Notes: a model not told the origin generated them from the letters alone. Numbered from the stretch's first letter, positions 12,335-30,533 are shown. The stretch is DNA of 64,000 nucleotides from Promethearchaeota archaeon (GCA_048940645.1 JBHLOI010000005.1:1-64000); one strand, 5' to 3'. Translations and numbers: made by a program.

Positions 12335-12429
12335 AATTAAATATTAAATCTAAAGCTTTTTATAAGATTTAGAAGAAGAACCAAAAAACTAGTATCTAAT
12401 AACTATTTCATTTTTAAAAAACTATAAGG

Positions 12430-15315: not shown

Positions 15316-15630
15316 ATGAATGATCAACCCCCAAATTTTCCAAAATTAGGAATCTATTTAATTTTTATTACTATTATATTGAATATAATATTTATCTTAA
15401 CAGGTGTTTACTTCTTTTTACATGACTGTTGGATAATTGCTATTATCATTTGGATACTAATCGCTATTATCGATATAATTGTAATTCTAGCAATAAAGAA
15501 ATTATTGGAATTTCGTGACCTGATATCTAGACTTATCGCAGGTCTACCTGAGCAAACTTGTGCACTATTTCTATTAGCTTTTATTAGTGCTATACTTACC
15601 GTTTTTATTGTCAGTATTATAATACTATAA
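15316..15630 (+). CDS. Small 3-TM membrane protein, copy 2
   Basis: Paralogue of 14748-15068 (MNDQPP.., WIIAIIIWILI, EFRDL, IAGLPEQTCALFLL). Confidence 0.8.
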   Translation: MNDQPPNFPKLGIYLIFITIILNIIFILTGVYFFLHDCWIIAIIIWILIAIIDIIVILAIKKLLEFRDLISRLIAGLPEQTCALFLLAFISAILTVFIVSIIIL

Positions 15631-15771
15631 TTTTAGAGGCTAAGAAATTGCTTAGCTTTTTTTTTTAATATCTACCTAATGAAGAAGGATAAAATTTTAA
15701 TACCAAGCAAAAACACATGAAATTTGGATATAAAGTTTATTTTTAAATCATAAAAATTGGTACAATAGAAA

Positions 15772-16854
15772 ATGATTTTACTATCTACCGAAAGTTTTGC
15801 AGACGGACTTTCAGCTATGTTATGCCTTATTTTTGCTTGGATTCTAGGATTAGGAATTATCATTCACGCTAGAAGATTAAATGCCAAACTCCTTTCATAT
15901 ATGGGCTTAAATATATTTTTAGCAGGTTTTTTCTGGCTAGTAATTTGCTGTGACTTTTTAGCAGTGTTAATATCAGGTCGTAATCTAAATAATCCATATG
16001 GATGGATGGGAATAGTCCACATTATGTGGGCTCCGCTTGTGTTATTAATTTCCGTATATATTGGCGCTGAACTCATGGTTCCTAAAAAAAAGTGGTATTT
16101 CGTTTATTCTTTTCTAATTTTAAGCTTATTATTTGAATTTTTTATTCTTATTAATCCTTTAGGTACTTTTTATTTTGAATACCCGGATACACCTGGCGAA
16201 AGCTTAATTATTATTATGATTATGTCTAATACTCCTGCAAATCTTTTAACATATGCTTTTGAAATTTTTGGATTACTTTTTTGCGGATTTGGATATTTAA
16301 TAAAGAGTTTTCGATCAGTTGGATTAATAAAAAATAAATTTATATTATTATCGATAGGATATTTTCTTTTTATTGGATTTCCTATTGTAGCAGCATTGAC
16401 ATCTCGTTTTGGTTTTTTCATTCCTATAGTTTATTCTAGGATTGGAATGGTAAGCGGATTCTTCTTTTTTTATGCAGGTTTGAGAGAAACGCCCATCTCA
16501 AAAAAGAAAAAAGAGAAAAGGGAAAGGATCAAAAAGGATGTAAAAGTTGAAGAATCATTGTTTAGATTATTTGAAAGACCATATCATATTTCCGAAGAGG
16601 AAGTCATTTTTCATAAAGAAAAGAAAATTTGTCTTGTTTGTAAAGGAAAAGTCCTAAGAGTAAACTATATTTGCCCTAAATGCAATGCCCTTTATTGTAT
16701 TAATTGCTCAGAAGTATTAAGTAATCGGGAGAACATGTGTTGGGTATGTGATGAACCTTTTGATGAATCTAAACCTATATCTCCGTATAAAAGAAAGATC
16801 AAGAAAGATGTCGCAAAAATTTTGGATGTACATAAAGAACCTGAAATTTCATAG
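15772..16854 (+). CDS. About 7-TM membrane protein with C-terminal C4C4 RING-like zinc finger (candidate membrane E3 ligase)
   Basis: About seven hydrophobic helices, a basic linker, then C-x2-C-x10-C-x2-C-x4-C-x2-C-x10-C-x2-C (CLVC..CPKC..CINC..CWVC). Confidence 0.75.
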   Translation: MILLSTESFADGLSAMLCLIFAWILGLGIIIHARRLNAKLLSYMGLNIFLAGFFWLVICCDFLAVLISGRNLNNPYGWMGIVHIMWAPLVLLISVYIGAELMVPKKKWYFVYSFLILSLLFEFFILINPLGTFYFEYPDTPGESLIIIMIMSNTPANLLTYAFEIFGLLFCGFGYLIKSFRSVGLIKNKFILLSIGYFLFIGFPIVAALTSRFGFFIPIVYSRIGMVSGFFFFYAGLRETPISKKKKEKRERIKKDVKVEESLFRLFERPYHISEEEVIFHKEKKICLVCKGKVLRVNYICPKCNALYCINCSEVLSNRENMCWVCDEPFDESKPISPYKRKIKKDVAKILDVHKEPEIS

Positions 16855-16910
16855 TCTAATATTAACTAAAATCAAGGATTTTCAATTGAATATTAATTTT
16901 TCTTATTACG

Positions 16911-17528
16911 TTAATATAAATATTCGAAGCAATCGAGATTCCCTCTAATTTGAGCAGCTATATCGTCTCTATCATCTTCAATTAATTCATCAATTGTAGT
17001 CTGATAATATTCAACCGCTTTAGCATACGCCGTATCATGAGAATCTCCTTGTGCGATTGAATGGTCAATTTGAGAATCACATTCAAAAAGAAGATGTCGA
17101 TGGTTCTCATCTGGATAGAGAAAATAATGAGAGTATCCAAAAAATGCTGTACAACCTTTATCTACAAAATCGTTTCCCAATGTATCAGCTGTAAAGCATG
17201 AGGTAAGGTGTATTACTTTATCCAAAACTTCCTCTTTTGAATAACCTTTTCCACGTAGAGGGCACTTTTTTTTAAAAATGTACTCACCCAGATGACCCAT
17301 AAAAGTAGATTTATTCCCATGCCCAGATCCTGTAATAAACTTGATGTCGGGATCTATAGCTATTTCTTCAACCTTTTCTCTTGTTGCGAGTTGTCCTTGT
17401 CTCATTTCAAGAGTTCTGGTAAACTGATTAATGTATGGATAAACTTTTATATTACGATAATCATAAATTATTCTAGTATCATTATCATAGTTAGAATCAA
17501 TTCCAAGGAATTTAATAGTTCCACTCAT
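16911..17528 (-). CDS. Stand-alone clan CD (caspase/gingipain/CHAT-like) cysteine peptidase
   Basis: Hydrophobic strand then HG (IKFITGSGHGN); hydrophobic strand then SC (KVIHLTSCFTA); followed by LGNDFVDKGCTAFFGY. Confidence 0.7.
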   Translation of the reverse strand: MSGTIKFLGIDSNYDNDTRIIYDYRNIKVYPYINQFTRTLEMRQGQLATREKVEEIAIDPDIKFITGSGHGNKSTFMGHLGEYIFKKKCPLRGKGYSKEEVLDKVIHLTSCFTADTLGNDFVDKGCTAFFGYSHYFLYPDENHRHLLFECDSQIDHSIAQGDSHDTAYAKAVEYYQTTIDELIEDDRDDIAAQIRGNLDCFEYLY

Positions 17529-17986
17529 AAGTCTAATTCACCTGCCTGTATTTTTCTTTTTGCTTTCTCTAAAACAAATTGGATCGTAAAAATTTCGATA
17601 TTAATTAAGCGCTTTCCTAATTTCGATTTCTTTTGTATTTCATCTATACCTCTGGCTTGTTCAATTTTTCCTATACCTGGAACAAAAACTTCGTATTCAG
17701 GTCTTACTTTAATTCTTTCTATTGCTATTTCTGATTTTATTTTTAAACTTAAGGTATCATAATCTATCTCCAAATTCTTTTCAAGAATATCTCTTACTGA
17801 TAATTTTTCATTTGCTTCTTCATCAATTCCACCAACCATGTCCAACTGAGCTTCTAGATTTTGTTTTGGTGTCTTTGTCTCAATTTTTTTAATGTTTTCT
17901 CTTATTTCTTTTCTTATTTTATCTTTATAGTCATCATCTAATCCAGGTAATTCTACACTTACTTTTTTCTTATAATAATAGGGCAT
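17525..17986 (-). CDS. Hypothetical protein translationally coupled to the caspase-like peptidase
   Basis: 153-aa charged protein; its stop overlaps the next start (ATGA, 4 bp). Confidence 0.7.
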   Translation of the reverse strand: MPYYYKKKVSVELPGLDDDYKDKIRKEIRENIKKIETKTPKQNLEAQLDMVGGIDEEANEKLSVRDILEKNLEIDYDTLSLKIKSEIAIERIKVRPEYEVFVPGIGKIEQARGIDEIQKKSKLGKRLINIEIFTIQFVLEKAKRKIQAGELDL

Positions 17987-18166
17987 TTAAGCTCATATTT
18001 CTTATTAATTAATGTTTATAATAGAATTTAATTAGAATTTCTATAATAAAATAAAATGGGTAGATATTTAATTTTTACAATTTTTTAAAAATTTTAATAT
18101 TATAAGATAATTATAGATAAGTATTGAAATTCAATAATCAATCTTTAAAATCTAAAAGGAAATTAT

Positions 18167-18448
18167 ATGAGATTATCCGTGGAAGATTCCAGAACTGGTA
18201 AATTAATAAAACTTGACGTTAAAGAGCACCACCAAATTGAACGTATCATCGATATTATTATAAAGCATATGGGTATTATTAGTGTGGAGCAACGGTCATA
18301 TACATTGGTGCTTCATGACAAAGAATTACCAAATAGCATAACAATTGAAGAGGCTGTCCATAAATATGGATTAAAAGAAAACGATAAATTAGCATTATGG
18401 GCTAGAGTTATTGGTGGATATCTTTTTTTGTTTAATCATCGATTATGA
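18167..18448 (+). CDS. Ubiquitin-like protein (pro-form: GG followed by a 9-residue extension)
   Basis: Beta-grasp pattern MRLSVEDSRTGKLIKLDV...YTLVLHDKEL...YGLKENDKLALWARVIGG; adjacent to E2/E1/JAB. Confidence 0.85.
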   Translation: MRLSVEDSRTGKLIKLDVKEHHQIERIIDIIIKHMGIISVEQRSYTLVLHDKELPNSITIEEAVHKYGLKENDKLALWARVIGGYLFLFNHRL

Positions 18449-18992
18449 TTATATCATCATTATCTTCATCATTCAATTCTCTGGTATGGTATTGCTTTTT
18501 TAAGGTTTCAATATCTACTTTTTTAAAGAACTCTGCTGCTTCTAAACATATATTATAGTTAAGAGGATCGTCTGGATTTGGATCTTCTAACAATTTTTCT
18601 AATGCTTTCACAGTAGTCTCTAAATCAGACAGCCTTGACCATTGTTTTAAAATATTTAAACAAATATAACCTGTGCCTGGATTTACAGAATGGGGTAATT
18701 CAACAGGATGAATATTAGGATGAAAAATAGTAGAATACCAAGCAAAATCTATACCACCGGGGTAAGGGAAAGATCGATTTAATTTGAATAGGATGCGGTG
18801 AGTAGTTTTGGGGGATAAATTCTGAGGATCTTCTATTTCTCGAATGAAACCTAATGCTTTTAATACAATTAAGAACTCAACATTGTTTTCTTGCCAAATT
18901 ATCGAATCTTTTTCAATAATCTTGAGTTTTTCTAGACTTTTAATCTCATTATTTATTCGATCCTTCCAGATTTCAAGCGGTAATTCAGGCAT
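18432..18992 (-). CDS. Ubiquitin-conjugating enzyme E2
   Basis: FPYP, IFHPNI (HPN motif), GYICLNILKQW (catalytic Cys), LLEDPNPDDPLN...AA. Confidence 0.92.
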   Translation of the reverse strand: MPELPLEIWKDRINNEIKSLEKLKIIEKDSIIWQENNVEFLIVLKALGFIREIEDPQNLSPKTTHRILFKLNRSFPYPGGIDFAWYSTIFHPNIHPVELPHSVNPGTGYICLNILKQWSRLSDLETTVKALEKLLEDPNPDDPLNYNICLEAAEFFKKVDIETLKKQYHTRELNDEDNDDIIIIDD

Positions 18993-19038
18993 ATCTAATC
19001 TTAATCTTAAACTTTAAATTATTTAAATATATAGATAC

Positions 19039-19920
19039 TTATTTTGATTTTTTATATGAGCATGTCCAACAATCAGGATCTTTTATTTTTTCAATAATAT
19101 TAAATTTATTTGTAAGGCCATTATATATTAATTGTTTCCCAATTAATGGTGAACCAATTTCATTGTCCCAACTTTTTTTCTCTTTAAAATAATCAATACC
19201 AAGTATAAATTTAATAACTTGTTGAGATTGAATCCCTCCAATAATTGAAGTTGTAGTAATGATAGTGGCTATTTTTCTTGTTGTTTCACCATCTTTAGAA
19301 TCAATTTCTTGCCCCGTACAGGAAAATCTCTTCCACATTAAATCTAAATCTGTGCCAGTAATTCCACATTGGAGGCAAGCAGCTTCACTTACTTCAGAAT
19401 AGACTGCTTGGATAGTTCCAAAGTGACCATCAATCCCCGAGTCAATAAAGGGGGTATTATAGTAGTAAGCATAATTGTTTGCCTCAATTCGGGCCTCAAT
19501 ATTATCCAAGCAAGAGCAGATAACATCACATTGTCTATAAAGATTCTTATCTATCTTATTCAATTCTTTTTTTATGGCTACAATCTCAACATCCGGATTT
19601 AAGATCCGAGAAGCTTCTTTAATGATATCAACTTTGTATTCCTTTTTTTCTGCAGTTTTTACATTAAAAAAAACACAACGATTTAAATTAGAAGCTTCTA
19701 TAAAGTCATAATCAATTAAGTAAATTTTACCTATCCCTGCTAAAACTAGATTTTTTACAAGTTCATTTCCTGTAGCTCCAGCACCAATCACCATTATCTT
19801 AGCATTATAGATCTTATCTTGATCCCATCCCTTAATTCGTTTCTGGCGATCATACTTATCTGAATCAATTGAATCTTGCCCTATGATCTTAATATCTTGT
19901 TCTTCCTTTTTATTATTCAT
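19039..19920 (-). CDS. Ubiquitin-activating enzyme E1 (ThiF/MoeB family)
   Basis: YDRQ, VIGAGATGNE, DYDFIEASNLNR, CLDNIEAR, CLQC and CWTC Zn sites, putative catalytic Cys in RFSCTG. Confidence 0.92.
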   Translation of the reverse strand: MNNKKEEQDIKIIGQDSIDSDKYDRQKRIKGWDQDKIYNAKIMVIGAGATGNELVKNLVLAGIGKIYLIDYDFIEASNLNRCVFFNVKTAEKKEYKVDIIKEASRILNPDVEIVAIKKELNKIDKNLYRQCDVICSCLDNIEARIEANNYAYYYNTPFIDSGIDGHFGTIQAVYSEVSEAACLQCGITGTDLDLMWKRFSCTGQEIDSKDGETTRKIATIITTTSIIGGIQSQQVIKFILGIDYFKEKKSWDNEIGSPLIGKQLIYNGLTNKFNIIEKIKDPDCWTCSYKKSK

Positions 19921-19952
19921 ATTTACTCTTTAATACTTTCAATTTACACCAT

Positions 19953-20444
19953 TTAATTTTTAGATATAATTGCATTACTAATAGTTTTATATTTTTTTTT
20001 GGAAGCATTATCTAATGTGTAAAAGTCATAAGTGTCTTTGATAGGATCTATAACTAATGCGACTTGAAAATTTTCGGGAAAAAAGTGTTGTTGAGTCTTC
20101 AAATCAGTTGGAGATAGAAAACAACCTAAATTGGGATGAGAATGCCACCAACCTACAACCCATAAATTCTTGTTTTTATTATTTTTTTTTAATTTTTGAA
20201 ATTCCTTATCGTATTTTCCGGCGGTTCCTTCAATTTGAGCAAATGATACCTTATGACTATAGAATGTTTCTTCAATGAATATTTTATCTTCTATAATAAT
20301 ATAGATTTGTTCTTTCCATTTACATATCAATCCAATTAAATAACCAAATATTTCATTTTCATAATTTTTGCACAAATCTTTAATCCCATTTAAAACATTT
20401 TCATAGATATACACTGGGAACACATAATCCTTATTAATAGTCAT
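19953..20444 (-). CDS. JAB/MPN+ (JAMM) metalloprotease, Rpn11/CSN5-like deubiquitinase
   Basis: EIFGYLIG and VVGWWHSHPNLGCFLSPTD (E...HxH-x10-D), VALVIDP. Confidence 0.92.
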   Translation of the reverse strand: MTINKDYVFPVYIYENVLNGIKDLCKNYENEIFGYLIGLICKWKEQIYIIIEDKIFIEETFYSHKVSFAQIEGTAGKYDKEFQKLKKNNKNKNLWVVGWWHSHPNLGCFLSPTDLKTQQHFFPENFQVALVIDPIKDTYDFYTLDNASKKKYKTISNAIISKN

Positions 20445-20467
20445 AATTCCTGCTCGAATTTCTGTTT

Positions 20468-21352
20468 CTAACCATCAATATTATCTATAATTGAAATCGT
20501 TAACATTTTTTTAATAATCTTTAAAATTTTTCCTTTAGAAGCATCTTCCACTGCAGAAAAGCTAAAAGTTTTAAGACCAAACATTTCTTCTATCTGTTTT
20601 GAATCAATTGCAATGGCTTCTTTATCTTGGAAATTTGCTAGCATGAAAAAATGTTTATTAACTTTATTCTTTAATAAAGAGAATAGTCTTTGAGTTCGTC
20701 CTAAATTTGTAGCAGCAGAATTTGTAATAAGACAGATGATATCTGCTGAATTTAATATATCCTTATATAAATCTGAATAATTAATTAGATTATTTAGATT
20801 TACAGCTCTTATTATACACTCTTTTATTCCACTTAATCCTGAGAGCTTGATCTGTTTAAAAAGTATTTCATTCATATTATCATCTAATTCTATAATTGTT
20901 TCTGTTGGGAGTAAATTAATCATTGTTGTCTTTCCAACTCCTTTCTCTCCCGTAAATATTATATTTGGCGGAATGTAAATATTTTCCTCTATAAAGTCAT
21001 CGAAGTCATTAAAGACACTCACAAGACCAGTCCAAGTTTCTAAATAAGGACGGTATCTCTTAATAAACTCCGTCTTCATTAATTTCAAATTTTTTTTTGC
21101 ACTTTCTTCTAAATCATCTTTATCAATAGCAATAACAAAAATACATTTAAATTCATGAGAGTATGAATATACAAATTTAAAGTTCTTAAAGATTAATGAC
21201 TCAATTTTGCCGCCTTTAATTTCCCTTGCAAAATCACTAACAGCTGTAATATACCCGCTAATTATTTCGTCCCTTTTATCCAACTTGTCAAAAAAGTCTT
21301 TGGTATAGCAAAGAATGCCTCCAGGTCCTATGATAAAGATTTTTGAGATCAA
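20468..21352 (-). CDS. Longin-domain plus small GTPase-like fusion protein
   Basis: Longin-like N-terminus (IFIIGPGGILCY...IISGYITAVSDFAREI...FNDFDDFIE); P-loop GEKGVGKTT, G4-like ANFQD, G5-like FSA; no DxxG G3 motif. Confidence 0.8.
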   Translation of the reverse strand: MISKIFIIGPGGILCYTKDFFDKLDKRDEIISGYITAVSDFAREIKGGKIESLIFKNFKFVYSYSHEFKCIFVIAIDKDDLEESAKKNLKLMKTEFIKRYRPYLETWTGLVSVFNDFDDFIEENIYIPPNIIFTGEKGVGKTTMINLLPTETIIELDDNMNEILFKQIKLSGLSGIKECIIRAVNLNNLINYSDLYKDILNSADIICLITNSAATNLGRTQRLFSLLKNKVNKHFFMLANFQDKEAIAIDSKQIEEMFGLKTFSFSAVEDASKGKILKIIKKMLTISIIDNIDG

Positions 21353-21459
21353 ACTATTTCCTTTTCTATCTACACATTTGTAATTAATTTAATAAATGAT
21401 ATTAGAATTAATTAAAGTGTTTGTGAAATTAAAATTATATTTCAAAGGGATTAAAATAA

Positions 21460-21606
21460 TTGAACGATAAAGAAAAAGAAGAAAAGCTGGAAAACCATCA
21501 ACCAGAAATATTAGATGTTGAGATTAAAGAAATTACTGAGCAAAAGCCGCCTAATGACAAAATTGTTTATTATAACCTTAAAAACAATAATAAAAAAGTG
21601 AAATAA
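21460..21606 (+). CDS. Putative 48-aa small protein missed by the ORF track
   Basis: TTG start, MNDKEKEEKLENHQPEILDVEIKEITEQKPPNDKIVYYNLKNNNKKVK*; AAGGGA upstream; purine-rich, coding-like composition. Confidence 0.45.
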   Translation: MNDKEKEEKLENHQPEILDVEIKEITEQKPPNDKIVYYNLKNNNKKVK

Positions 21607-21738
21607 GCTAATAATTTATTTATTCTATTTTAAATATTTTTAATTTCAGCCATACAAATTAATAAATAGGAATAAGAACAAAAAAAAATTTTGAGAATTT
21701 AAGATCATACCTTTTTCTAAAAATTAAAAAAGTGATAA

Positions 21739-21838
21739 AAAATGTTTTAAACTGAAACATCTATTATTAATTATTCTTAAAGCTAAGAATTTTAAAATCA
21801 GAAAACCAATATTGTTTTAATTTAATATTAGTAAATAG
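21739..21838 (+). promoter_or_regulatory. Conserved upstream/promoter region, copy 1
   Basis: AAAATGTTTTAAACTG-AAC-TCTATTATTAATTATTCTTA-AGCTAAGAA...AAAACCAATA, closely matched at 25703-25800; contains TTTTAAA TATA-like box. Confidence 0.7.
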
Positions 21839-24800
21839 TTGAGGATGGTAGGAATCACTCAAGGTGAATTACTAAGTAAAGCAGAAGCAGAAAAAAATAA
21901 TTATAATTGGGAAGAAGCAGCAGATTTATATGAGCAAGTTGCTAAAGAAGAGTTAAATCAAAATAGGTTAGAATATGCTGCCAAGTTTTATGATAAGCTT
22001 GGTAATATATGCATTCGAGCTGTTTTAGCATCGAACACTAAAGAAGATTATTTATTTTGGAATGAAAAATCGGTCAAAGCTTTTCTTAAGGCGGAGGATC
22101 TTTTTAACCGGATTGATATTAACCCCCTAAGTATGGAATGTAAAGCCAAAGCTCTTAATGCTATGAGTTATGTGATTACTTCAGTTGAAGAAGCACGAAA
22201 AAATTTAAAAAAATCAGTTGATATTTTTTTAGAACTTAAAGAAAAATATTTAAAAGCGAATGATAAGAAAAACTGTGTAAGATTATCAATCCTGACGATA
22301 GAATCCATAAATTCTTTCATGTTCCTATGTAAAGATCCTTCTGAATTAGACTTTTATAACCAGATGGCTTGTAATTTAATAGAAAAGGCTTGGATACATT
22401 TAAAAGAAAATGATACAATCAAAATTAGAGAAAGATTATTGTGGGGTGAAAATATGGTAATTAATTTTAATCGGTGGGCGGAACTTACTTATGGAGATGA
22501 AAAGCAAAAGGAAATCCTAAAGAGATATTTAAAAAGATGTGAAGAAACATTGCATTTAGCTGAAAATTGCGATGATTATGATATTCTTGGAGGTATTTAT
22601 GGTGCATTTGGTTTTCAAAATTGTATATTTGGAGGACTATTAGTTGAAGAACAGAAGGAGCGAGTAAGACTTGCTGAAAAAGGATTTGAGTTATTAGAAA
22701 AAAGTATAACATTCTATAGAAAATCAAGAAATGTTCTTGGAGCTATAACTTGTCGTTATGGTTTAGATTATCAAGCTGCTATTTTTGGCAGATATGAATA
22801 TTTACAGAAAAGAATTCTAAATGATGTGCATGAAGTTCAAAAATTAGATAAAATCTTCGATAATCAATATACTGGGCTTTATTGTTTCATGGATTTTATA
22901 CCTATAAGTTATTATAACTTATTTACAGGTAGAAGTTTTTTAAAGGCGGATACAAGGAAATCATATGCAAAAATAGGGATTCAATACACCAATGAAACTT
23001 TAAAGAGACTCGCATTTGGACCTTATATAATCTTTGCATATCAGATTTTAACTCTTTTATATTCAGAGTTGGTCACTCTTGCCATAGAAGGTGATCCCCG
23101 AGAAAAATATATTCAAAAGATGTTAGATTACGCAAAAGCAGCAGAAAATATCGCTAAAGACTATAAAGGAGGAGCTGTTAGAGCGGGAGGCTTAACTTCC
23201 ATTTATAGAGCATATAAGACAATGGCAGATATTACTAAAGGTAAAAAAGAAAAAAAATTAAATCTATTAACTGCAATAGAGGCTGCAAAGAAAAATGTTA
23301 AATATTCAATAGAATCTTATAGACTATATATAACCTCTCAAATGCGTTTAGGGCAGCTTTATGAGGAATTAGGAATTCTAACAACTGAAGAAAAACCCTT
23401 AATGGAAGCAAGAGAGCTATTCCTCCGTATAATTGAAGATAGTTCGGAAAAAGGTTATTATTATTATACAGCTGCTTGTTATGAATTTATTGCTCGTTTA
23501 GAAGATCGTCTTGGAAATCACATGACTTCTGCAGAATACTATGAAAAAGCGTGGGAGGCTCATGATAAGTCATTAATAGCAATTGAATTTAAACCATTAA
23601 AAGACAGGGTTAATGAAAAGATTGAATATGCTAAAGCATGGAATTTAATTGAGAAAGGTAAGGCATATCATAAAAGAGAACAGCATTTAAATGCCAAAGA
23701 ATGTTATAGAGAAGCATCTGAGATCTTAAAAACACTACCTAGTTTTAATTATGAAGCAGTTTATTATGGAGCCTGGATAGCTTTAGAAGAAGCTGAGGAT
23801 CTTAGTAAGCAGGAAAAACATGATCAAGCTATAAGGAGCTATGAGAAAACTAGAGAACATTTTGAGAATGCTGTCTTTAGTATTAGATTTATTAGGAAAA
23901 ATGTTAGAAGGTCAAAAGAATTAAAAAAACTTGAGAAAGTAGCTAAAATAAGGATGAATCATTGTTCTGCCAGAATAAATCTTGATAAGGCAAGAATTTT
24001 AGGAAAAAAGGGAGATCACCTTGCCGCTGCTGAAAAATTTAACAATGCAGCATCTCAATTCAGAGATATTTGTGTATTATATAAAATTAAAAGAGAGCGA
24101 GCAGAATTAGAGGCAATATATTATCTCTGTAGAGCTTGGGAAAGCATGGAATTAGCTGAAAACTACGAGGATCCTGAAAAATTTGCAGAAGCGGCAGACT
24201 TATTCGCAGAAGCTAGCGATTTCTTTACGGAAAGTAAATTGAAATTCCTAGCTCAGGGTAATTCAAATTTTTGTTTAGCTCTAGAAGAAGGATGTAAATT
24301 TGATCAGTCCCATGATATGAAAATTAAAACAATATTGTATCCCAACGTTAAATTAATTCTTAGAAAAGCAGCAGATTTATATGAAAAAGGTGGTTTTAAA
24401 AATGGTGCAGACTGGGCACTTGCAACATCAATATATTTCGATGCAGCATGGTATTTAATTCAAGCCGATGATGAATTAGATATAAATAAAAAACAGGAGT
24501 TTTTAAGTTTTGGATCAAATTATTTGAAGTCAGCAGCAGAACTCTTTCGTAAAGCTGGATATCAAGACAAAGAACGAGAAATTTTAGACAGATTAAAAAG
24601 AGTCATTAAAGAGGAAAAGATACTTTTTTCCGCCTTAAACACAATTAATAAACCCTCTGTTTCAGGAAGTATTGAAGGGATAGTTACACCATCATGTCCG
24701 ATAGAAACAAGCCAATCACCACGGATAGGTGAAATTCAACAATACTCTGAAGAAGTGAGTAAATTCTTAGAAATAGATAGTAAAATAAAAAAATATAAAA

Positions 24801-25666
24801 TAGAATATAGGGATTTGTTAAAAGATTATCCAAAATCCCCAAGGAACCAATGTAGAGTTGGTGTTGCTCAAATCGGTATTTCCAATTCTGGTGCTATAAT
24901 GAATGAGTTTTATGATGAAAAACCTAAGGGGCTTCTAACACTTAAAGAAGAGAAAGTTAATGATGTTGATTCAAAAGTTAAAGAAATGATTGAAAAAGCC
25001 CATCAAGCAGGTGTAGACATATTACTTTTTCCAGAAATGGCAGTAGATCTCAAATATAGGCAATTTTTAGAGCATATATCAAATCTTGCTAAAGCATATG
25101 GAATGTATATTATCCCTGGATCATACCACGACGTTGAAACAAAAAGCAATATTAGCTTAGTCATAGGACCTGAAGGAATTCTCTGGCGACAAGAAAAACA
25201 TATCCCTGCAATAATTAGTCTAGAGAGAGGTAGATTTAAAGAAGGAATAGATACAACTACTTTACCGCATAAAACATTAGTGTGTAATACAGAATATGGA
25301 AGAATAGCTATTGCAACATGTCGGGATTTTCTTGATATGGATTTAAGGGTTGAGTTAAAAAATTTCGAGCCCCCAGTGGATATTGTTTTAAACCCAGCTT
25401 TTACGCCTGTTACAGCTGATTTCAAGGCAGTTCATTTTGATGCGCGGAGATCCATTTATGCTTACACTTTTTTTGCAAACATTGCTGATTTTGGGAACTC
25501 TCTCATATATACGCCGGAAAAAGAGCGTGTTGAAAGAAATCTCCCTCCAAAACAGGAAGGTTTAATCTATAAAGATGTAGATCTTTTTAGACTTCGTTCA
25601 GAACGGAAGAAATGGGAAAAAGAACAAAAAAAAGAAGTTCAATTTATTCAAAGTACTAGATCATAA
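21839..25666 (+). CDS. Large TPR/SNAP-like helical repeat protein with C-terminal nitrilase (carbon-nitrogen hydrolase) domain, copy 1
   Basis: About 930 aa of helical repeats (AADLYEQ, AAEKF, AADLF), then E-K-C triad LLFPEM / QEKHIP / IATCRDF. Confidence 0.85.
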   Translation: MRMVGITQGELLSKAEAEKNNYNWEEAADLYEQVAKEELNQNRLEYAAKFYDKLGNICIRAVLASNTKEDYLFWNEKSVKAFLKAEDLFNRIDINPLSMECKAKALNAMSYVITSVEEARKNLKKSVDIFLELKEKYLKANDKKNCVRLSILTIESINSFMFLCKDPSELDFYNQMACNLIEKAWIHLKENDTIKIRERLLWGENMVINFNRWAELTYGDEKQKEILKRYLKRCEETLHLAENCDDYDILGGIYGAFGFQNCIFGGLLVEEQKERVRLAEKGFELLEKSITFYRKSRNVLGAITCRYGLDYQAAIFGRYEYLQKRILNDVHEVQKLDKIFDNQYTGLYCFMDFIPISYYNLFTGRSFLKADTRKSYAKIGIQYTNETLKRLAFGPYIIFAYQILTLLYSELVTLAIEGDPREKYIQKMLDYAKAAENIAKDYKGGAVRAGGLTSIYRAYKTMADITKGKKEKKLNLLTAIEAAKKNVKYSIESYRLYITSQMRLGQLYEELGILTTEEKPLMEARELFLRIIEDSSEKGYYYYTAACYEFIARLEDRLGNHMTSAEYYEKAWEAHDKSLIAIEFKPLKDRVNEKIEYAKAWNLIEKGKAYHKREQHLNAKECYREASEILKTLPSFNYEAVYYGAWIALEEAEDLSKQEKHDQAIRSYEKTREHFENAVFSIRFIRKNVRRSKELKKLEKVAKIRMNHCSARINLDKARILGKKGDHLAAAEKFNNAASQFRDICVLYKIKRERAELEAIYYLCRAWESMELAENYEDPEKFAEAADLFAEASDFFTESKLKFLAQGNSNFCLALEEGCKFDQSHDMKIKTILYPNVKLILRKAADLYEKGGFKNGADWALATSIYFDAAWYLIQADDELDINKKQEFLSFGSNYLKSAAELFRKAGYQDKEREILDRLKRVIKEEKILFSALNTINKPSVSGSIEGIVTPSCPIETSQSPRIGEIQQYSEEVSKFLEIDSKIKKYKIEYRDLLKDYPKSPRNQCRVGVAQIGISNSGAIMNEFYDEKPKGLLTLKEEKVNDVDSKVKEMIEKAHQAGVDILLFPEMAVDLKYRQFLEHISNLAKAYGMYIIPGSYHDVETKSNISLVIGPEGILWRQEKHIPAIISLERGRFKEGIDTTTLPHKTLVCNTEYGRIAIATCRDFLDMDLRVELKNFEPPVDIVLNPAFTPVTADFKAVHFDARRSIYAYTFFANIADFGNSLIYTPEKERVERNLPPKQEGLIYKDVDLFRLRSERKKWEKEQKKEVQFIQSTRS

Positions 25667-25702
25667 CTTTTTTCCAAATCCAATTTTATGATTATTCTAT
25701 GT

Positions 25703-25800
25703 AAAATGTTTTAAACTGGAACGTCTATTATTAATTATTCTTAGAGCTAAGAAATTCAAAATCGAAAAACCAATACAGCTAATTTAGTATTAATAAAAAG
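25703..25800 (+). promoter_or_regulatory. Conserved upstream/promoter region, copy 2
   Basis: Closely matches 21739-21838. Confidence 0.7.
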
Positions 25801-28800
25801 TTGAGGATGGTAAGAATCACTCAAAGTGAATTATTAAGTAAAGCAAAAGCAGAGGAAAAGAATTATAATTGGCTTAAGGCTGCAACCTTATATGAACAAG
25901 TTGCAAATGCATTTTTAGATGAACAATCATTGGAAAAAACCGCGAAATATTGCAAGAAATTGGGTCATGCTTATGTAAAGGCATCGCATACTGCTGACAC
26001 ATCAGAAGGATTTAGAAATATAAACAACCTTGCAATTAAAGCATATAAGAATGCTTTAAATTTTTTTAACCAGATTAAAAAGAATCCAGAGGATTTAGAA
26101 TGTGAAGCAGAAATATTCAGCATCAAAGGAGTACTTGCTAATTCTGCTTTGGAAGGAAAGATAAACTTTAAAAAATCTTATGAGTTATTTGTTAAATCAA
26201 GTGAGATCTATAGAAATAATGACGATCAAGAAAGTACAGCAAGAACTTTAAGTAGTGCTACAGAATCTCTTTTTCGACTAGTATTTTGTAGTCCTGAGCA
26301 AGAGGAAATCGAAAATTATATTCAAAAAGGTTTAAAAATAGGTCAAGAAGCTTGGGTTCTTGCTAAAAAAGGTAATTATTATGATATACTTGCTGAATTA
26401 TTATATTCTATAGGAAAGTTGACTTTTCTTTATTGTTTTGTCATACCTTTTAAATGGACCGATGATTTTAGAAAGTATTTTAATAAATACAAATCAATAG
26501 GAGATATTAGTTTAAAGCTTATTCAAGAATGTACCGCTCCAGATGTAATAGCAAAAGTCAATTTATTTACAGGAATAATCTATGCCAGTTTCGCTATTCA
26601 AATTATTGAAGACTCAATCAAACAGAAAGAATATGGAGATAAGGGCATTGTGTTGATGGAAATTGGACTAAATTACATGAAAAAAGTCAAAGATAAAAGA
26701 GATATAATATATGGTATATTTTTTTTAAACTATTTAGCAACTTCTTTAAGAAGATTTAATTATGTACAAAAGAGAATATGGCAAGATGTGCATACTCTTT
26801 TAGAATTGGGGGAAGTGTATAAAGGATTATTAATTGAGCCTTATTTCCTTAGAACCATTTTCCCTGCTTTTTATTATACGAATCTTTCTCAAAGAAGTTT
26901 TATTAAACCTGATCAACAAAAAAAGTATGCTAAGTTAGCTATTCAATACTCCAAAGAATCTTTAGAAGTTTTTTCTTTCTTACCTATGTTAACTTGGTCA
27001 TACCAAGCATTAACATGGTCTTATTCAAAATTAGCATATCTTACAAATGTACAGGATGAGCAAAATAAATATATAAATAAAATGACTAGTTATGCTAAAA
27101 AGGCAGAGAATCTAGCTAAAAATTATAAAGGAGGGTTTTCTGTAGCAGCAGGATACTCATCTTTATTTAAAGCCTATAAGACTCAGGCAGATTTATCAAA
27201 AAAAGCTGTAAAAAAAATAGAATTGCTTAAATTATCAATTGAAGCTCATAAGAATTACCTTGGAAATGAAGTTGAATCTCCTACAGGAATAATTGCAGCG
27301 CAAATACGCTTAGGATTATTATACCAAGAACTCGGCATTCTAACTCAGCAATCTGAAACATTTGAACGAGCTAGAGATGCATTTCTATTGGTTGAACAGG
27401 AAAGTAAGAGGAGGAAATTCTTTTATTATACTGCCACTGCTTATGAATATCTTGCTCATATAGAAGACCGAATTGGAAATTATTCTGACTCTGCAAATTA
27501 TTATGAAAAAGCACGAGAAATTTATCAGAATTTACTTGATACTGTAGAACAAAAACCTCTAAGAAAGAATATTATAGAAAAAGTTGAATATACAACAGCC
27601 TGGAATTTAGTAGAGAAGGCTAAGTCATTCCATAGGAATGAAGAACATCTAATGGCAAAAGAAAGTTATCAAAAAGCAAGTGAAATCCAAAATAATATTC
27701 CAAAGTTCAATTTTGAATCCCACTACTATGAAGCATGGGCATTATTGGAAGAAGCGGAACATTTCAGCAAGCAAGAAAAGCAAAGGGAGACAATTAATAA
27801 GTATAAAGAAAGTCAAAATGCCTTTGAAAACACTATAGATATTCTAGTTGAGAAATCAAAATCTTCGAAATTAAGAGAAGTTAAAGAGAGAATAGAGAAA
27901 CTTGAGAAAGTTGCTAAATTAAGAATAAATTATTGCTCTGCAAAGATAAATCTGGAGGAAGGTAGGATTTTGGGAAAGCGGGGCGAGCACTTTAAAGCTT
28001 CTGAACGTTTTGGAAAAGCTGCTTCTCAATTTAGGAATGTATGTACGCGATATAAAATAGAAAAAGAAAGAAAAGATCTTGAAGCAATATATTATCTTTG
28101 TAGAGCTTGGGAAAATATGGAGCTTGCTGAAAATTATTTGGAGCCAGAAAGATATGCAGAGGCTGCAGATCTTTTCTTGAAGGCAAGTCAACTCTTTCAA
28201 GATAGCAAAATGAAATTATTGGCATCAGGAAATTCTGCTTTCTGTAATGCTTTAAAATTAGGATGTAGATTTGATGAGTCTTATGACTCAGAAACTAAAG
28301 GGAAGTTGTATCCTAACATTAAAGCAATGCTAAGAGGAGCTGCAAATTCTTATGAGAAGGGAGGTTTTAAAAATGGTGCAGATTGGGCTATAGGTACTTC
28401 TACTTATTTTGATGGTGTATGGCATGTAATTAAAGCAGATGAAGAGCTGGATCTAGAAGAGAAAGAAAGACTTCTCAAATTAGGAGAACAAATTCTAAAA
28501 TCAACAGCAGATCTTTTCGGTAAAGCAGGTTATGAAGATAAACAAAATGAAGTATTGAATCGTATTGAATTGATTAAAAAAGAAGAAAAGATTTTATTTT
28601 CTGCTTTAAATTCGATTAAAAAGCCTGAAATCTCTGGAAGTACAACTGGTATTATTGCTCCAGCTTGCCCTATAGAAATTAGTCAATCTCCTAGATTAAG
28701 TGAAGTACATCAAATCACAGAAAATATAATAAGAAGATATGTAGAAGAAAAAACTGAACAGAAAAAATATGAAATTACATATACAGATTTTCTTAAACAA

Positions 28801-29637
28801 GACTTAAAAACCCAAAAAAGTCAATTTAGAATAGGAATTGCTCAAATTGGCTTATCAAAAACCAGTGATATTATAACTGATTTTTTTGAAGAGAAATCCA
28901 ATGGTTTGTTGGGATTTAAAAAGGAGAAAATAAAACCCGTGATAAGTAAAGTTAAAGAAATGGTTGATAATGCTAGTAGCCATAAAATTGATGTTCTAAT
29001 TTTTCCAGAAATGGCTATAGATTTAAATTATAAAGAACTTTTAGAAGAGATATCAAACCTCGCCAAGAAATATAACATGTATATCATTCCAGGTTCTTAT
29101 CACAATCAAGAAACAAAACAAAATATAAGTATGGTTATCTCTCCTGAAAGAATTCTATGGATACAAGAAAAACATATTCCTGCTATAATTCACTTTGAAG
29201 ATAAAAAGTTTAAAGAAGCTATAGAAACCAGCTCAAGACCTCGAAAGATATTAGTATGCAATACTGAATACGGAAGAATTGCCATCACTATATGTCGAGA
29301 CTTCCTTGATATGGATTTAAGAGTTGAATTAAAAAATTTTGAACCTCCTGTTGACATTGTTATAAATCCTGCATTTACCCCCGTCACAGCTGATTTTAAA
29401 GCGGCTCATTTTGATGCACGTAGATCGATTTATGCTTATTGTTTTTTTGCTAATGTAGCTGAATTTGGTGAATCCCTCATCTACACTCCTGAAAAAGATC
29501 GTACTGAAAGAAGCATTCCAGCAAAAGAAGAAGGTCTGATATATAAAGATGTCAATTTATTCAAATTACGATCAGAACGTAAAAAATGGGAAAAAGAGCA
29601 AAAAAAGGACGTGCAATTTATCCAGAGCACGAGATAA
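25801..29637 (+). CDS. Large TPR/SNAP-like helical repeat protein with C-terminal nitrilase domain, copy 2
   Basis: Full-length paralogue of the preceding gene; LIFPEM / QEKHIP / ITICRDF; CRDFLDMDLRVELKNFEPPVDIV identical between the copies. Confidence 0.85.
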   Translation: MRMVRITQSELLSKAKAEEKNYNWLKAATLYEQVANAFLDEQSLEKTAKYCKKLGHAYVKASHTADTSEGFRNINNLAIKAYKNALNFFNQIKKNPEDLECEAEIFSIKGVLANSALEGKINFKKSYELFVKSSEIYRNNDDQESTARTLSSATESLFRLVFCSPEQEEIENYIQKGLKIGQEAWVLAKKGNYYDILAELLYSIGKLTFLYCFVIPFKWTDDFRKYFNKYKSIGDISLKLIQECTAPDVIAKVNLFTGIIYASFAIQIIEDSIKQKEYGDKGIVLMEIGLNYMKKVKDKRDIIYGIFFLNYLATSLRRFNYVQKRIWQDVHTLLELGEVYKGLLIEPYFLRTIFPAFYYTNLSQRSFIKPDQQKKYAKLAIQYSKESLEVFSFLPMLTWSYQALTWSYSKLAYLTNVQDEQNKYINKMTSYAKKAENLAKNYKGGFSVAAGYSSLFKAYKTQADLSKKAVKKIELLKLSIEAHKNYLGNEVESPTGIIAAQIRLGLLYQELGILTQQSETFERARDAFLLVEQESKRRKFFYYTATAYEYLAHIEDRIGNYSDSANYYEKAREIYQNLLDTVEQKPLRKNIIEKVEYTTAWNLVEKAKSFHRNEEHLMAKESYQKASEIQNNIPKFNFESHYYEAWALLEEAEHFSKQEKQRETINKYKESQNAFENTIDILVEKSKSSKLREVKERIEKLEKVAKLRINYCSAKINLEEGRILGKRGEHFKASERFGKAASQFRNVCTRYKIEKERKDLEAIYYLCRAWENMELAENYLEPERYAEAADLFLKASQLFQDSKMKLLASGNSAFCNALKLGCRFDESYDSETKGKLYPNIKAMLRGAANSYEKGGFKNGADWAIGTSTYFDGVWHVIKADEELDLEEKERLLKLGEQILKSTADLFGKAGYEDKQNEVLNRIELIKKEEKILFSALNSIKKPEISGSTTGIIAPACPIEISQSPRLSEVHQITENIIRRYVEEKTEQKKYEITYTDFLKQDLKTQKSQFRIGIAQIGLSKTSDIITDFFEEKSNGLLGFKKEKIKPVISKVKEMVDNASSHKIDVLIFPEMAIDLNYKELLEEISNLAKKYNMYIIPGSYHNQETKQNISMVISPERILWIQEKHIPAIIHFEDKKFKEAIETSSRPRKILVCNTEYGRIAITICRDFLDMDLRVELKNFEPPVDIVINPAFTPVTADFKAAHFDARRSIYAYCFFANVAEFGESLIYTPEKDRTERSIPAKEEGLIYKDVNLFKLRSERKKWEKEQKKDVQFIQSTR

Positions 29638-29717
29638 TTTTTTATCTGAAATCTTATATTCTTTTAAATATATTTAAAATTAAGGGATTAAACTAATTTC
29701 TTAAGTGAATTTTTTAC

Positions 29718-30533
29718 ATGAGTAAGGGATTTAGACTTCTTCGAGTAGAGTATCTTTTTTCTGTATTAATACCATGTTTATTATGTATATATTTGAATGA
29801 TTATGATGTAGTTTCTCACATTTGGATTTTAGCTGGATTTGGCTTTTACGCTATTACAGGGAATACTCTTAATGATGTAATTGATATGAAGGATCCTAAA
29901 GAAAAAGAAACACTTGAACGAGTTGAGGGATACGGACGTAAAGAAATAGGAGTTCTTTCAATCTCAAGTTTTATGATAGGTACAATGTGTTTCTTGAATG
30001 AAATTTTAATAAAGCCATTATTAGCTGTTTATTTAGCATTAATCATAATTATGGTAATTTTTTACTGCTTATTTAAAAAATTGGTGATAATAAACCATAT
30101 AATATTAGGAATTTCTCATATATTTTTACCTTATTTTATGATTAAAATTAATGCAGGAGACACCATCTTGAATTACTTTCCTAATTTGACATTATCAGAG
30201 TGGCTTATTGTAGTCTCAGTAACTTCTGCTGGTTTTGTAGGACAAATGTTACATGAAATGATTGATGGAGATGCTCTTGCTAGATTAAAACCAAGATCTT
30301 CTCAAATTGTCATGTGGATTTCATCCTTAATTGCATTAACAATGTCAATAATATCATTGATAATTACTAATTATTTGATTTTTCTGCCAATAATAATTTT
30401 CCCAATTGGGGTTATATATATTTTCAGGAAACCTAGGAAGGATCTATTAGGTAAAACTTCATTAAAGGATACAGGTATCATTTTGGGTAATCTGATATTT
30501 GCATATATTATAATTCTTATTGTTACTTCATAA
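29718..30533 (+). CDS. UbiA-family prenyltransferase-like membrane protein
   Basis: Multi-TM; NTLNDVIDMKD (NDxxDxxD) and a second acidic motif HEMIDGD. Confidence 0.7.
   Translation: MSKGFRLLRVEYLFSVLIPCLLCIYLNDYDVVSHIWILAGFGFYAITGNTLNDVIDMKDPKEKETLERVEGYGRKEIGVLSISSFMIGTMCFLNEILIKPLLAVYLALIIIMVIFYCLFKKLVIINHIILGISHIFLPYFMIKINAGDTILNYFPNLTLSEWLIVVSVTSAGFVGQMLHEMIDGDALARLKPRSSQIVMWISSLIALTMSIISLIITNYLIFLPIIIFPIGVIYIFRKPRKDLLGKTSLKDTGIILGNLIFAYIIILIVTS

Follow-up and report, generated by a model that had tools for sequence, protein, structure and literature searches.

A probable accessory ubiquitylation island with a candidate membrane RING ligase in a Loki-type Asgard archaeon

Gene content of the island and its ubiquitin core

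The window, which is the whole 64,000-nucleotide stretch of DNA analysed here, comes from an uncultured Loki-type Asgard archaeon. An earlier note had listed in it genes for ubiquitin-type conjugation, a membrane RING protein, a clan-CD protease pair, a longin-GTPase and two giant TPR-nitrilases, and all of these ORFs were found in place. They lie in an accessory island of ~16.9 kb (12835–29717), which comprises a radical-SAM gene, two small ORFs and all genes from that of the seven-helix transmembrane (7TM) RING protein to that of the second giant protein, and which is spread over several transcription units. The island is bordered on the left by backbone genes for an ACT protein (10951–11361) and a methyltransferase (11606–12334) and, directly adjoining, a gene at 12430–12834, and on the right by UbiA (29718–30533, directly adjoining) and a CCG gene (30632–31903). 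In four cassette-free genomes of the same genus (G017, G008, G016 and G024), this backbone is contiguous, and a single 266-aa TauE gene, the only one between its two halves, replaces 12835–29717; the cassette is an insertion at a fixed chromosomal site. As the earlier note had stated, no ESCRT gene or small soluble RING gene was found nearby, in the region of 12–34 kb.

The pro-ubiquitin-like modifier (18167–18448, plus strand) ends in VIGG followed by a 9-residue tail, and its gene is convergent with that of the E2, overlapping the 3′ end of the latter by 17 nt. All of the 22 modifier orthologues, with a mean identity of 75%, end in GG plus 0–9 residues. The modifier had no match with the Pfam ubiquitin model; its profile aligned residues 7–84 to ubiquitin 6–76, end to end, at a weak ~6.6 bits per repeat. 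The UBC-type E2 (18432–18992, minus strand) scored 41.6 bits against Pfam UQ_con (cut-off 27) and has an HPN motif (H91-P92-N93) and Cys111, invariant in 18 orthologues, as well as an invariant Pro76-Tyr77 loop; the PY loop of the Caldiarchaeum E2 is required for E3-dependent transfer (PMC5654768). Analysis of the minimal ThiF-type E1 (19039–19920, minus strand; ThiF 156.8 bits) revealed a GxGxxG motif, two CxxC pairs and Cys201, all invariant in 33 sequences, with Cys201 as the predicted thioester site. The JAMM/Rpn11-like metalloprotease (19953–20444, minus strand; JAB 41.1 bits) has E31, H101xH103, S111 and D114 conserved in 34 sequences. The reported proximity of pro-ubiquitin, E2, E1 and JAMM was confirmed, with Pfam matches and catalytic residues for the last three and an invariant GG end for the ubiquitin-like modifier. 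The genome contains two further E2 genes, each adjoining an E1-like gene, so that the cassette is an accessory third E1–E2 set.

The good scores of the E1 against ThiF/MoeB models (e.g. TIGR02356 at 9e-31, under the curated cut-off) would accord with a SAMP/Urm1-like or sulphur-carrier pathway, one that uses the ThiF-type E1 and its beta-grasp partner for cofactor or tRNA thiolation and not for protein tagging. However, conserved together with these two are a JAMM peptidase, a RING partner and a UBC E2 of canonical type, with its HPN motif and Cys; the modifier is synthesised as a precursor whose GG is followed by a tail, and the genome carries additional ThiF/MoeB-type genes. We regard this pathway as very improbable.

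The membrane RING-type and GTPase-like proteins and their link to the core

The 7TM protein (15772–16854, plus strand) carries a C-terminal C4C4 RING-type finger (Cys287–Cys326; DNA 16630–16749) and is a candidate membrane E3 ligase. Its AlphaFold2 model (pLDDT 82.6) consists of seven TM helices, a disordered Lys-rich linker and a beta-beta-alpha zinc finger, with zinc ligands 5 and 6 at the start of the helix, and the ligand spacing, C-x2-C-x10-C-x2-C-x4-C-x2-C-x10-C-x2-C, is that of a cross-brace. Seven of the eight ligands are invariant among 24 paralogues, ligand 5 being His in four, and the FG-GAP and helical-repeat RING proteins have His as ligand 2. Comparison of the RING profile with solved structures gave the TFIIH p44 C4C4 RING as the best match (1e-4), followed by RNF4 (1.4e-3) and Mdm2 (~0.01), whereas Pfam zf-RING_2 was sub-threshold in 23 of 25 members and C1_2 and DZR (C1, double zinc-ribbon) matched as well; the putative assignment as a RING depends on these profile E-values of 1e-4 to 1e-2, which are marginal. 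The top 50 fold matches of the model were all 7TM bundles (e.g. the GABA-B 7TM domain; Z 15.2, rmsd 4.0, 229 aligned), a result that is generic for helical bundles, and Foldseek with the whole model yielded weak class-C GPCR matches only (E 5e-4, TM-score ~0.4). Judged by the positive-inside rule and the Lys-rich linker, the RING would face the cytoplasm.

Val/Ile289 and Trp324 of the RING are invariant, as is Pro76-Tyr77 of the E2. Hennell James et al. found that E2/RING contact residues are needed in Caldiarchaeum (PMC5654768), and the residues named here appear to resemble them, a likeness that is suggestive only. Complex modelling of the E2 with the RING domain, which the earlier note had proposed, was run on E2 residues 1–172 and RING tail 262–342 with their own alignments, and passed our mark with a score of 0.47, against 0.00 for the best control; runs agreed in at least 38% of contacts, and partner pLDDT was at least 75. 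Of 80 solved complexes, 58 passed this mark, as did 2 of 110 mismatched pairs; passing scores of 0.60 or less came from only 7 of the 80 and from both of these mismatched pairs, and the support is weak. Moreover, since E2 and RING are a textbook pair, the pass may reflect the predictor's familiarity with such complexes, and the prediction is not counted as evidence.

RING paralogues number up to 18 per genome and are scattered across many contigs. Other carriers adjoining cassettes combine the RING with a signal peptide, an FG-GAP propeller and a single TM helix; in a sister family (f4), the E3s next to JAMM–E1 are small RING proteins of 67–158 aa.

The first gene of the operon (20468–21352, minus strand) encodes a P-loop protein with an N-terminal longin-like domain (residues 1–125) and an Arf/SR-beta-like G domain, and the gaps downstream of it along the operon are 23, 32 and 46 nt. 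Its G1 and G4 motifs are GEKGVGKT and NFQD, with GxxGVGK and N-x-Q-D at least 95% conserved in 49 sequences. The description as a longin-GTPase held for the GTPase half, which matched Arl1/Arl5/Arf1 over the whole length of the G domain in profile searches (5e-4 to 6e-2), but weakly for the longin half: the best solved-structure match of the N-terminal 125 aa was the SRX longin domain (5ck3), over its full length at a sub-significant E of 0.12, and comparison with the genome's own Robl_LC7 domains gave an hhalign probability of 33%. No DxxG switch II motif is conserved in the family; we therefore call the protein GTPase-like and claim no working switch. Distant longin-GTPases from other families of the class (~30% identity), one of them in a single-contig 4.4-Mb genome, had no adjoining ubiquitin genes, which makes the ubiquitin link specific to this orthologue group. 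A second ubiquitin/GTPase locus was found on contig 11 of this genome, and the notion that it is decayed was rejected, its ORFs being intact.

To compare gene neighbourhoods, as the earlier note had suggested, loci were anchored on the E1 and on the longin-GTPase. The E1-anchored search gave nine assessable loci in two families, all with a GTPase-family gene and a RING gene beside JAMM–E1; in each of the nine, the GTPase gene either immediately preceded JAMM or lay within the locus, and P-loop-anchored loci agreed. The longin-GTPase anchor added 25 loci, with JAMM–E1–E2 directly downstream in 23 and a RING protein within 5 kb in ~20 of the 22 that were assessable. The conserved cassette is thus [longin-GTPase]–JAMM–E1–E2, a convergent pro-ubiquitin gene and one to four membrane RING proteins. 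Among 161 genomes of the class, 72 contained both the cassette and the RING type, 1 the cassette only, 11 the RING only (two of these with E1 fragments at contig ends) and 77 neither, a table that overstates the case because related genomes are not independent samples. The presence of the cassette was patchy (about 73/161 genomes, and 14/41 in the genus), and it was absent from 14/14 genomes of a neighbouring family (f2), including single-contig genomes of 4.4 and 6.0 Mb. Adjacency in nearly every assessable related locus, as well as co-occurrence across the 161 genomes, bears out the claimed link of the ubiquitin core with the membrane RING and the longin-GTPase and supports the three as one conserved unit.

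Optional nitrilases and an unrelated protease pair

In the neighbourhood comparison the RING and GTPase were nearly constant, but the nitrilases proved optional and the protease pair unrelated, and about 45 related loci resolve into three layers, namely the conserved cassette, an optional nitrilase output and an unrelated protease pair. The first giant helical-repeat protein (21839–25666, plus strand; 1275 aa), with a C-terminal nitrilase-superfamily domain, is encoded divergently from the operon across a 486-nt spacer, and the second (25801–29637, plus strand; 1278 aa) is a paralogue 50% identical to it, whose residues 680–1278 are the part fused to the longin-GTPase in relatives. CN_hydrolase scored 29.9 and 38.4 bits in the two giants (cut-off 23.2), and TPR_12 was slightly under its cut-off. 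The catalytic residues of the nitrilase, E42, K96, E128 and C137, are invariant in 15 sequences, mean identity of the nitrilase is 83%, and the C-terminal IQSTR is invariant. A single-sequence search of solved structures with the TPR-nitrilase half gave no match at 0.01, and the nitrilase profile matched DRT1 weakly, at E 6e-3, a level similar to that for Nit2 (2e-4) and beta-alanine synthase.

About 15 sampled loci have, immediately ahead of JAMM in the operon, a gene that joins the longin-GTPase to the TPR-nitrilase half, whereas the two are separate genes here; the fusion proteins (791–880 aa) head the operon and match residues 680–1278 of the giants at 55% identity. Further fusions join the helical-repeat segment of that half to a RING (L040, 452 aa) and to a GTPase alone (G000 contig 11). 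The longin-GTPase–nitrilase fusions establish a family-level link of the giant TPR-nitrilases with the system, of which the earlier note had made them a part. Obligate membership did not hold: the nitrilase occurred without the cassette in 18 genomes and the cassette without the nitrilase in 27, and giant TPR-nitrilases are mostly located elsewhere in genomes. Among this genome's three nitrilase modules, two adjoin the operon, an arrangement that recurs in two other genomes (G150 and G022), and the third stands alone. Since the cassette can do without the nitrilase, which in turn is found apart from it, the two giants of the window could work independently.

The minimal 205-aa clan-CD (CHAT/caspase-fold) cysteine protease, p205 (16911–17528, minus strand), and its 153-aa partner (17525–17986, minus strand), whose stop overlaps the protease start by 4 nt, form an inserted two-gene cassette. 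The partner had no match in Pfam or NCBIfam, and a p205 profile found nothing among solved-structure sequences or in Pfam; only the fold search resolved p205. Its model (pLDDT 97) matched SAVED-CHAT (8tl0; Z 15.9, rmsd 2.7, 170 aligned), gingipain (Z 14.4), separase (Z 13.3) and legumain (Z 11.9), with caspases as the top Foldseek matches, and His70-Gly71 and Cys111 are invariant in 56 homologues. The CHAT Pfam model matched two other proteins of the genome but not p205, and the Caspase Pfam model matched none across the genome. p205 thus shares its fold and His-Gly / Cys dyad with SAVED-CHAT, Csx29 and other CHAT-type clan-CD proteases, but differs from SAVED-CHAT and Csx29 in its length of only 205 aa without a sensor domain, in the ~150-aa partner gene ahead of it and in having no Pfam model. 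The earlier assignment of this protease to the ubiquitin system fell: the pair was present in only 2 of ~45 related loci (the window and one in G019) and recurs in unrelated contexts, where a partner homologue directly precedes a protease homologue on contigs L076 (40% identity, E 1e-30) and L077 (E 8e-12). A p205-type protease is always preceded by a partner of ~150 aa, and one of the unrelated contexts carries bacterial-type genes. The protease pair is a separate mobile insertion, outside the ubiquitin system.

That the flanks are coincidental, with only Ub, E2, E1 and JAMM cooperating and the 7TM zinc-finger protein, the P-loop protein and the giants having separate jobs, would suit the several transcription units, the unrelated protease pair and the giants' mostly distant locations, including the third module standing alone. 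For the RING and GTPase, however, it is contradicted and largely refuted by the two-family synteny, the fusions and the 72/1/11/77 table, and for the giants the placement of two of the three modules beside the operon, as in G150 and G022, speaks against it; we consider it unlikely. With a probability of roughly 70%, we read the locus as an accessory island for ubiquitylation that is specific to a lineage, the Loki-type (Promethearchaeia) Asgard archaea; its obligate part would be the longin-like/Arf-like GTPase–JAMM–E1–E2 operon, a convergent pro-ubiquitin gene and at least one C4C4-RING membrane protein, and its biochemistry is our inference.

Relation to known systems and possible roles

The operon of Caldiarchaeum subterraneum contains Rpn11, Ub, E2, E1 and a small RING finger protein (PMC3082918; PMC5654768; PMC6043591). 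The island has in common with it a pro-ubiquitin with a 9-residue tail after GG and a compact locus of JAMM peptidase, minimal E1, PY-loop UBC E2 and RING-type E3, and the small RINGs of the sister family resemble Caldiarchaeum srfp. In contrast to Caldiarchaeum, the RING here is C4C4 and not RING-H2, and forms the tail of a 7TM protein, or in relatives the tail of single-pass FG-GAP receptors or helical-repeat proteins, with up to 18 paralogues per genome; furthermore, a longin-like GTPase heads the operon, and a nitrilase output is attached in many genomes. Asgard ESCRT-linked ubiquitin clusters, reportedly described by Hatano in 2022, likewise combine an E1/E2/RING cascade with pro-ubiquitin. 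In Helarchaeia, E1/E2/RING acts on UEV-Vps23 (bioRxiv 10.1101/2023.07.25.550441). The island differs from such clusters in having no ESCRT genes and in being an accessory third E1–E2 set that is absent from the neighbouring family f2. Eukaryotic membrane RING ligases include the multi-pass Hrd1, MARCH and TRC8 and the single-pass PA-TM-RING proteins RNF43, ZNRF3 and GRAIL. The RING proteins here resemble these in joining a membrane or ectodomain part to a putatively cytosolic RING that would bring E2~Ub to the membrane, but their membrane part matches 7TM bundles generically, with no sequence or specific fold tie, and the distribution points to an independent, lineage-specific invention of membrane RINGs relative to the eukaryotic ones. 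Among the papers searched, we found no description of a ubiquitin kit combined with a seven-helix membrane RING and a GTPase-like adaptor, often amidase-fused in relatives, and class the island as a variant of archaeal ubiquitin operons in an apparently unpublished combination.

Gene content, catalytic residues, folds, synteny, fusions, co-occurrence and island status form the observed frame for a proposed route, in which each biochemical step is conjectural, as are the substrates and whether tagging controls the amidase or the reverse. JAMM would cut the modifier tail after Gly-Gly, and could later remove the tag; ubiquitin would be activated by the E1 through Cys201, handed over to Cys111 of the E2 and, as E2~Ub, docked by the 7TM-RING protein at the inner face of the membrane. 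If docked there, tagging would fall on membrane or membrane-proximal proteins, with each RING paralogue selecting its targets through its own diversified membrane part or ectodomain. The switch-II-less GTPase-like protein may be a nucleotide-bound adaptor or regulator rather than a cycling switch, and could, via its helical-repeat partner, couple the cascade to the optional amidase output, which is fused to the GTPase in many relatives and would here be supplied by two separate giant proteins.

The role of the system may be membrane signalling, turnover or antiviral defence, and the sense–modify–execute defence circuit of the earlier note is a hypothesis. A tentative reading, to which we give limited credence, is that Loki-type archaea possess a receptor-type ubiquitin network, in which one E1–E2 pair would serve up to 18 membrane RING ligases, either 7TM or single-pass with an extracellular FG-GAP propeller, passing information across the membrane by ubiquitylation with the switch-II-less longin/Arf-like GTPase as adaptor and the conserved amidase as one output. 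Were it true, transmembrane ubiquitin-ligase signalling and E3 diversification would be a prokaryotic invention independent of eukaryotes. Archaeal ubiquitin operons are models for the ancestor of the eukaryotic system and have so far been described with small soluble RINGs or beside ESCRT genes; in the variant proposed here, the E3 would be membrane-anchored and multiplied, a trafficking-type GTPase module added, and the whole coupled to an amidase. The cassette, being an accessory island absent from family f2, should not be taken for a eukaryote-like trait of ancestral origin. Should the RING tails prove active, they would be, to our knowledge, the first prokaryotic membrane or receptor-type RING ligases, and would offer a compact, reconstitutable system for the origin of E3 diversification and membrane targeting, as well as a way into what effector-type nitrilases, that of DRT1 included, do.

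Compact Ubl–E1–E2–JAB cassettes of bacteria, namely Bil, type II CBASS Cap2/Cap3 and the 6A–6E operons, are said to act in defence. The island resembles them in its compact and patchy set of Ubl, E1, E2 and JAB genes, with E1 and JAMM matching PADLOC E1-E2 and JAB models, but differs in its separate, canonical HPN UBC E2, in its RING E3 and in containing no cyclase or known effector of theirs; against the 6A-MBL model, E1 scored 30.9 and JAMM 25.9 bits (cut-off 320). An antiviral or conflict system akin to Bil, CBASS Cap2/Cap3 and the DRT1 nitrilase, in which a membrane or helical-repeat sensor would detect infection and ubiquitin conjugation or deconjugation would release a toxic nitrilase effector, and perhaps the protease, is conceivable and would fit the patchy presence of the cassette, although patchiness is common among Asgard eukaryote-like genes generally (10.1101/2020.10.19.343400). 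No PADLOC system model was matched beyond generic E1 and JAB homology, the component matches being those to the E1-E2, JAB and RT-associated nitrilase models, with none for the Ub, E2, GTPase or protease genes. The very high conservation of ubiquitin (75%) and nitrilase (83% mean identity) and the scattered RING paralogues, which suggest an E3 network more than a single defence operon, also count against it, as do the 27 cassette genomes without nitrilase and a scan of viral contigs with ubiquitin and nitrilase profiles, which found no relatives. On the other hand, the PADLOC RT-associated nitrilase model (2e-14) fitted better than Pfam CN_hydrolase (1e-9), and versions of the same nitrilase (70–76% identity) occur joined to TPR, kinase, FIST and alpha/beta-hydrolase plus AAA_16 modules, an effector-like habit. 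In the DRT1 reverse transcriptase-nitrilase, the nitrilase acts as an effector of abortive infection and has a conserved lid at its C terminus (PMC13275509). Like DRT1, the giants have a nitrilase with an intact catalytic tetrad behind an alpha-helical repeat, and their C-terminal end is conserved too, in their case as the invariant IQSTR; they have no reverse transcriptase, however, and by profile they resemble DRT1 itself weakly (E 6e-3). The fixed chromosomal site of the insertion and rapid fusion, fission and copy-number change, with a satellite locus lacking E1, E2 and JAMM, would likewise be in keeping with defence, as would the arrival of a mobile CHAT-type protease cassette in this island.

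Conservation of the ubiquitin cassette and its GTPase-like protein

Inspection of open reading frames revealed all eleven genes of the earlier note where it had placed them, and Pfam agreed with its assignment of the E2 (UQ_con), the E1 (ThiF), the JAMM protease (JAB) and a C-terminal CN_hydrolase domain on both giant TPR-nitrilases (21839–25666 and 25801–29637; 1275 and 1278 aa). Alignments of 18–34 orthologues showed that every expected catalytic residue was kept, namely HPN and Cys111 in E2; GxGxxG, two CxxC pairs and Cys201 in E1; and E31, H101xH103, S111 and D114 in JAMM. The modifier was very conserved (75% mean identity across orthologues), with a C-terminal Gly-Gly in all of them followed by 0–9 variable residues, and profile comparison revealed end-to-end but weak similarity to ubiquitin. 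From precursor trimming through E2 charging, the steps would be those of the cascade reconstituted for Caldiarchaeum (PMC5654768, PMC6043591).

An E1-anchored search of 41 relatives detected orthologues in roughly one third of the genus as well as in a second family. The nine loci that could be assessed all had a RING gene and a GTPase-family gene beside JAMM-E1, supporting the grouping of these genes into one locus that had been proposed from the window. When the GTPase-like gene was used as the anchor across 161 genomes of the class, orthologues were found in about 73; JAMM-E1-E2 lay directly downstream in 23 of the 25 fetched loci, ubiquitin was convergent wherever the sequence extended far enough, and one to four RING proteins were usually adjacent. 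Distant longin-GTPases of other families (about 30% identity) were not located beside ubiquitin genes.

The C-terminal half of the GTPase-like protein (20468–21352, minus strand) aligned with Arl and Arf proteins across the whole G domain. Its P-loop and N-x-Q-D guanine motif were conserved in an alignment of 49 sequences, in which DxxG was absent; one fused homologue is annotated by JGI as SRP receptor beta. Of the longin-GTPase proposed earlier, the G domain was thus supported, whereas matches of the other half were sub-significant: the N-terminal 125 residues matched the SRX longin domain over the full length at E 0.12, and the genome's Roadblock domains at 33% probability. Because of these values, "longin" is used here as a reasonable label and not as a result. 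Longin-GTPase fusions have been noted in Asgard archaea by Liu et al., this neighbourhood not being among them, and the literature searched described no membrane RING, longin-GTPase or nitrilase in an archaeal ubiquitin operon. Two genomes of the genus have, upstream of JAMM, a gene for a 338-aa protein with an N-terminal G domain and a helical C-terminal extension, without a longin domain (L016, 11551–12567; L017, 11505–12521).

Membrane RING-type proteins

In the AlphaFold2 model of the RING protein (15772–16854, plus strand; pLDDT 82.6), a disordered, Lys-rich linker connects seven TM helices (residues 6–237) to a beta-beta-alpha zinc finger. Judged by the positive-inside rule, the loop charges place the N-terminus outside and the C-terminus inside, and the finger is therefore predicted to be cytoplasmic. 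Profile comparison of the finger returned the C4C4 RING of TFIIH p44 first (E 1e-4), matching the earlier C4C4 RING-like call, and then RNF4 and Mdm2; Pfam RING models scored under threshold against it. Ligands 2 and 5 of the finger alternate between Cys and His among paralogues, as metal ligands do. The likeness of the 7TM part to GPCR and rhodopsin bundles was generic only, the best match being the GABA-B 7TM domain (Z 15.2, rmsd 4.0, 229 aligned), a range that is uninformative for helical bundles. Modelling of the E2–RING complex, which the earlier note had suggested, passed weakly only and is given no weight as evidence.

RINGs of the second family are small proteins (67–158 aa), as in Caldiarchaeum, and the 7TM-RING fusion is accordingly specific to the window's family. 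Some RING carriers that adjoin cassettes combine a signal peptide with an FG-GAP beta-propeller, a single TM helix and the same type of RING, a predicted layout resembling a single-pass receptor-like ligase. These proteins are 505–901 aa long (L030, 12358–17998; L039, 7759–9276; L040, 15843–17414).

Nitrilase modules and the protease pair

The nitrilase residues E42, K96, E128 and C137 were conserved in the alignment. The first gene of about 15 loci encodes a protein of 791–880 aa in which a longin-GTPase, a helical-repeat segment and a nitrilase are joined, the latter two showing 55% identity to residues 680–1278 of the window's giants. In view of these fusions, the nitrilase has been recruited to the cassette, and the arrangement in the window is a split variant, common to two other genomes (G150 and G022). 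The module occurred in 64 genomes, 46 with and 18 without the cassette, and was absent from 27 cassette genomes, which makes it an optional output module. The inclusion of the giants in the system gained from the fusions in relatives and lost from the 27 cassette genomes without the module, and we place the dependence of the window's two giants on the cassette at about even odds. The window's own genome carries three copies of the module: a pair next to the operon and a solitary third. Other metagenomic proteins (P0209, P0241, P0254, P0216 and others) carry this highly conserved module (70–76% identity) joined to protein kinase, FIST, or alpha/beta-hydrolase plus AAA_16 modules, and TPR modules are a further fusion partner. 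Two genomes have genes for giant TPR-nitrilases (about 1280 aa) in tandem, three or four at a time, at sites away from any ubiquitin cassette (G109:C1:157875-170593 and G141:C33:148257-156942).

Further fusions join the helical-repeat segment to a RING (L040) and, on contig 11 of the window's genome (L078), to a GTPase without a nitrilase. The latter 409-aa protein, which also lacks a longin domain, belongs to a satellite trio (6018–8908) with a 304-aa multi-TM RING protein and a convergent ubiquitin paralogue (84 aa, 68% identical). No E1, E2 or JAMM was present in L078, and the satellite presumably relies on the window's enzymes.

The 205-aa protease (16911–17528, minus strand) belongs to an unannotated family of 352 representative clusters with no Pfam model, in which His70-Gly71 and Cys111 are invariant. 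Its model (pLDDT 97) has a clear clan-CD fold, as the earlier note had called it, with matches to SAVED-CHAT (Z 15.9), gingipain (14.4), separase (13.3) and legumain (11.9). Its membership of the ubiquitin system was not supported: among about 45 ubiquitin loci, it was found in the window and one sister genome only. The same pair, a partner of roughly 150 aa followed by the protease, recurred on unrelated contigs (L076 and L077), one of which bears genes of bacterial type (secretin, ammonium-transporter and P-II). From this rarity and recurrence, we conclude that the pair (16911–17986) is a mobile cassette, complete in itself, which inserted between the genes for the RING protein and ubiquitin. 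This CHAT-like protease and its upstream partner form a two-gene module that is widespread.

Genomic setting and role

The window corresponds to contig 60 of a metagenome-assembled genome (3.8 Mb, about 90% complete, about 30% G+C), whose nearest named relatives are MAGs of the Promethearchaeia/Promethearchaeota, Loki-type Asgard archaea. The island is flanked by an ACT protein, a methyltransferase and a 134-aa gene to one side and by UbiA and CCG to the other. Four genomes of the same genus that lack the cassette have these flanks contiguous but for a single TauE gene, in place of which 16.9 kb (12835–29717) stands in the window. The genome carries two more E2 genes, on contigs 80 (about 17924–19701) and 121 (about 8645–13384), each with an E1-like neighbour (414- and 536-aa ORFs) of a type found in nearly all of the 41 relatives searched; these pairs probably represent the core ubiquitin-like systems of the lineage. 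Given the replacement of TauE and the two other pairs, the window cassette is an accessory third ubiquitin-like system.

Among the 161 genomes of the class, 83 contained the RING type and 73 the cassette, with both in 72 and neither in 77, and RING-type copies numbered 1 to 18 per genome. Since the RING paralogues are many and scattered and sequence conservation is strong, we favor a tagging network close to the membrane, serving signalling or turnover (probability about 0.45), over antiviral defence. A defence role is the less likely of the two; the island status of the locus, its modular effector and the resemblance of its nitrilase to defence nitrilases speak in its favor. In the tagging network, the RING tail would dock E2~Ub at the membrane, the GTPase may serve as an adaptor, and the amidase may be subject to control.

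Inside the island and adjoining the RING gene, 13094–14620 encodes a 508-aa radical-SAM-like protein under the Pfam cut-off; such a gene also lies beside the RING gene in one relative (G019), and five genomes of the genus without the cassette yielded none. Elsewhere in the window, open reading frames were present at 729–10895 and 34692–39058, where a benzoyl-CoA-type operon and five tandem alpha/beta-hydrolase paralogues had been flagged.
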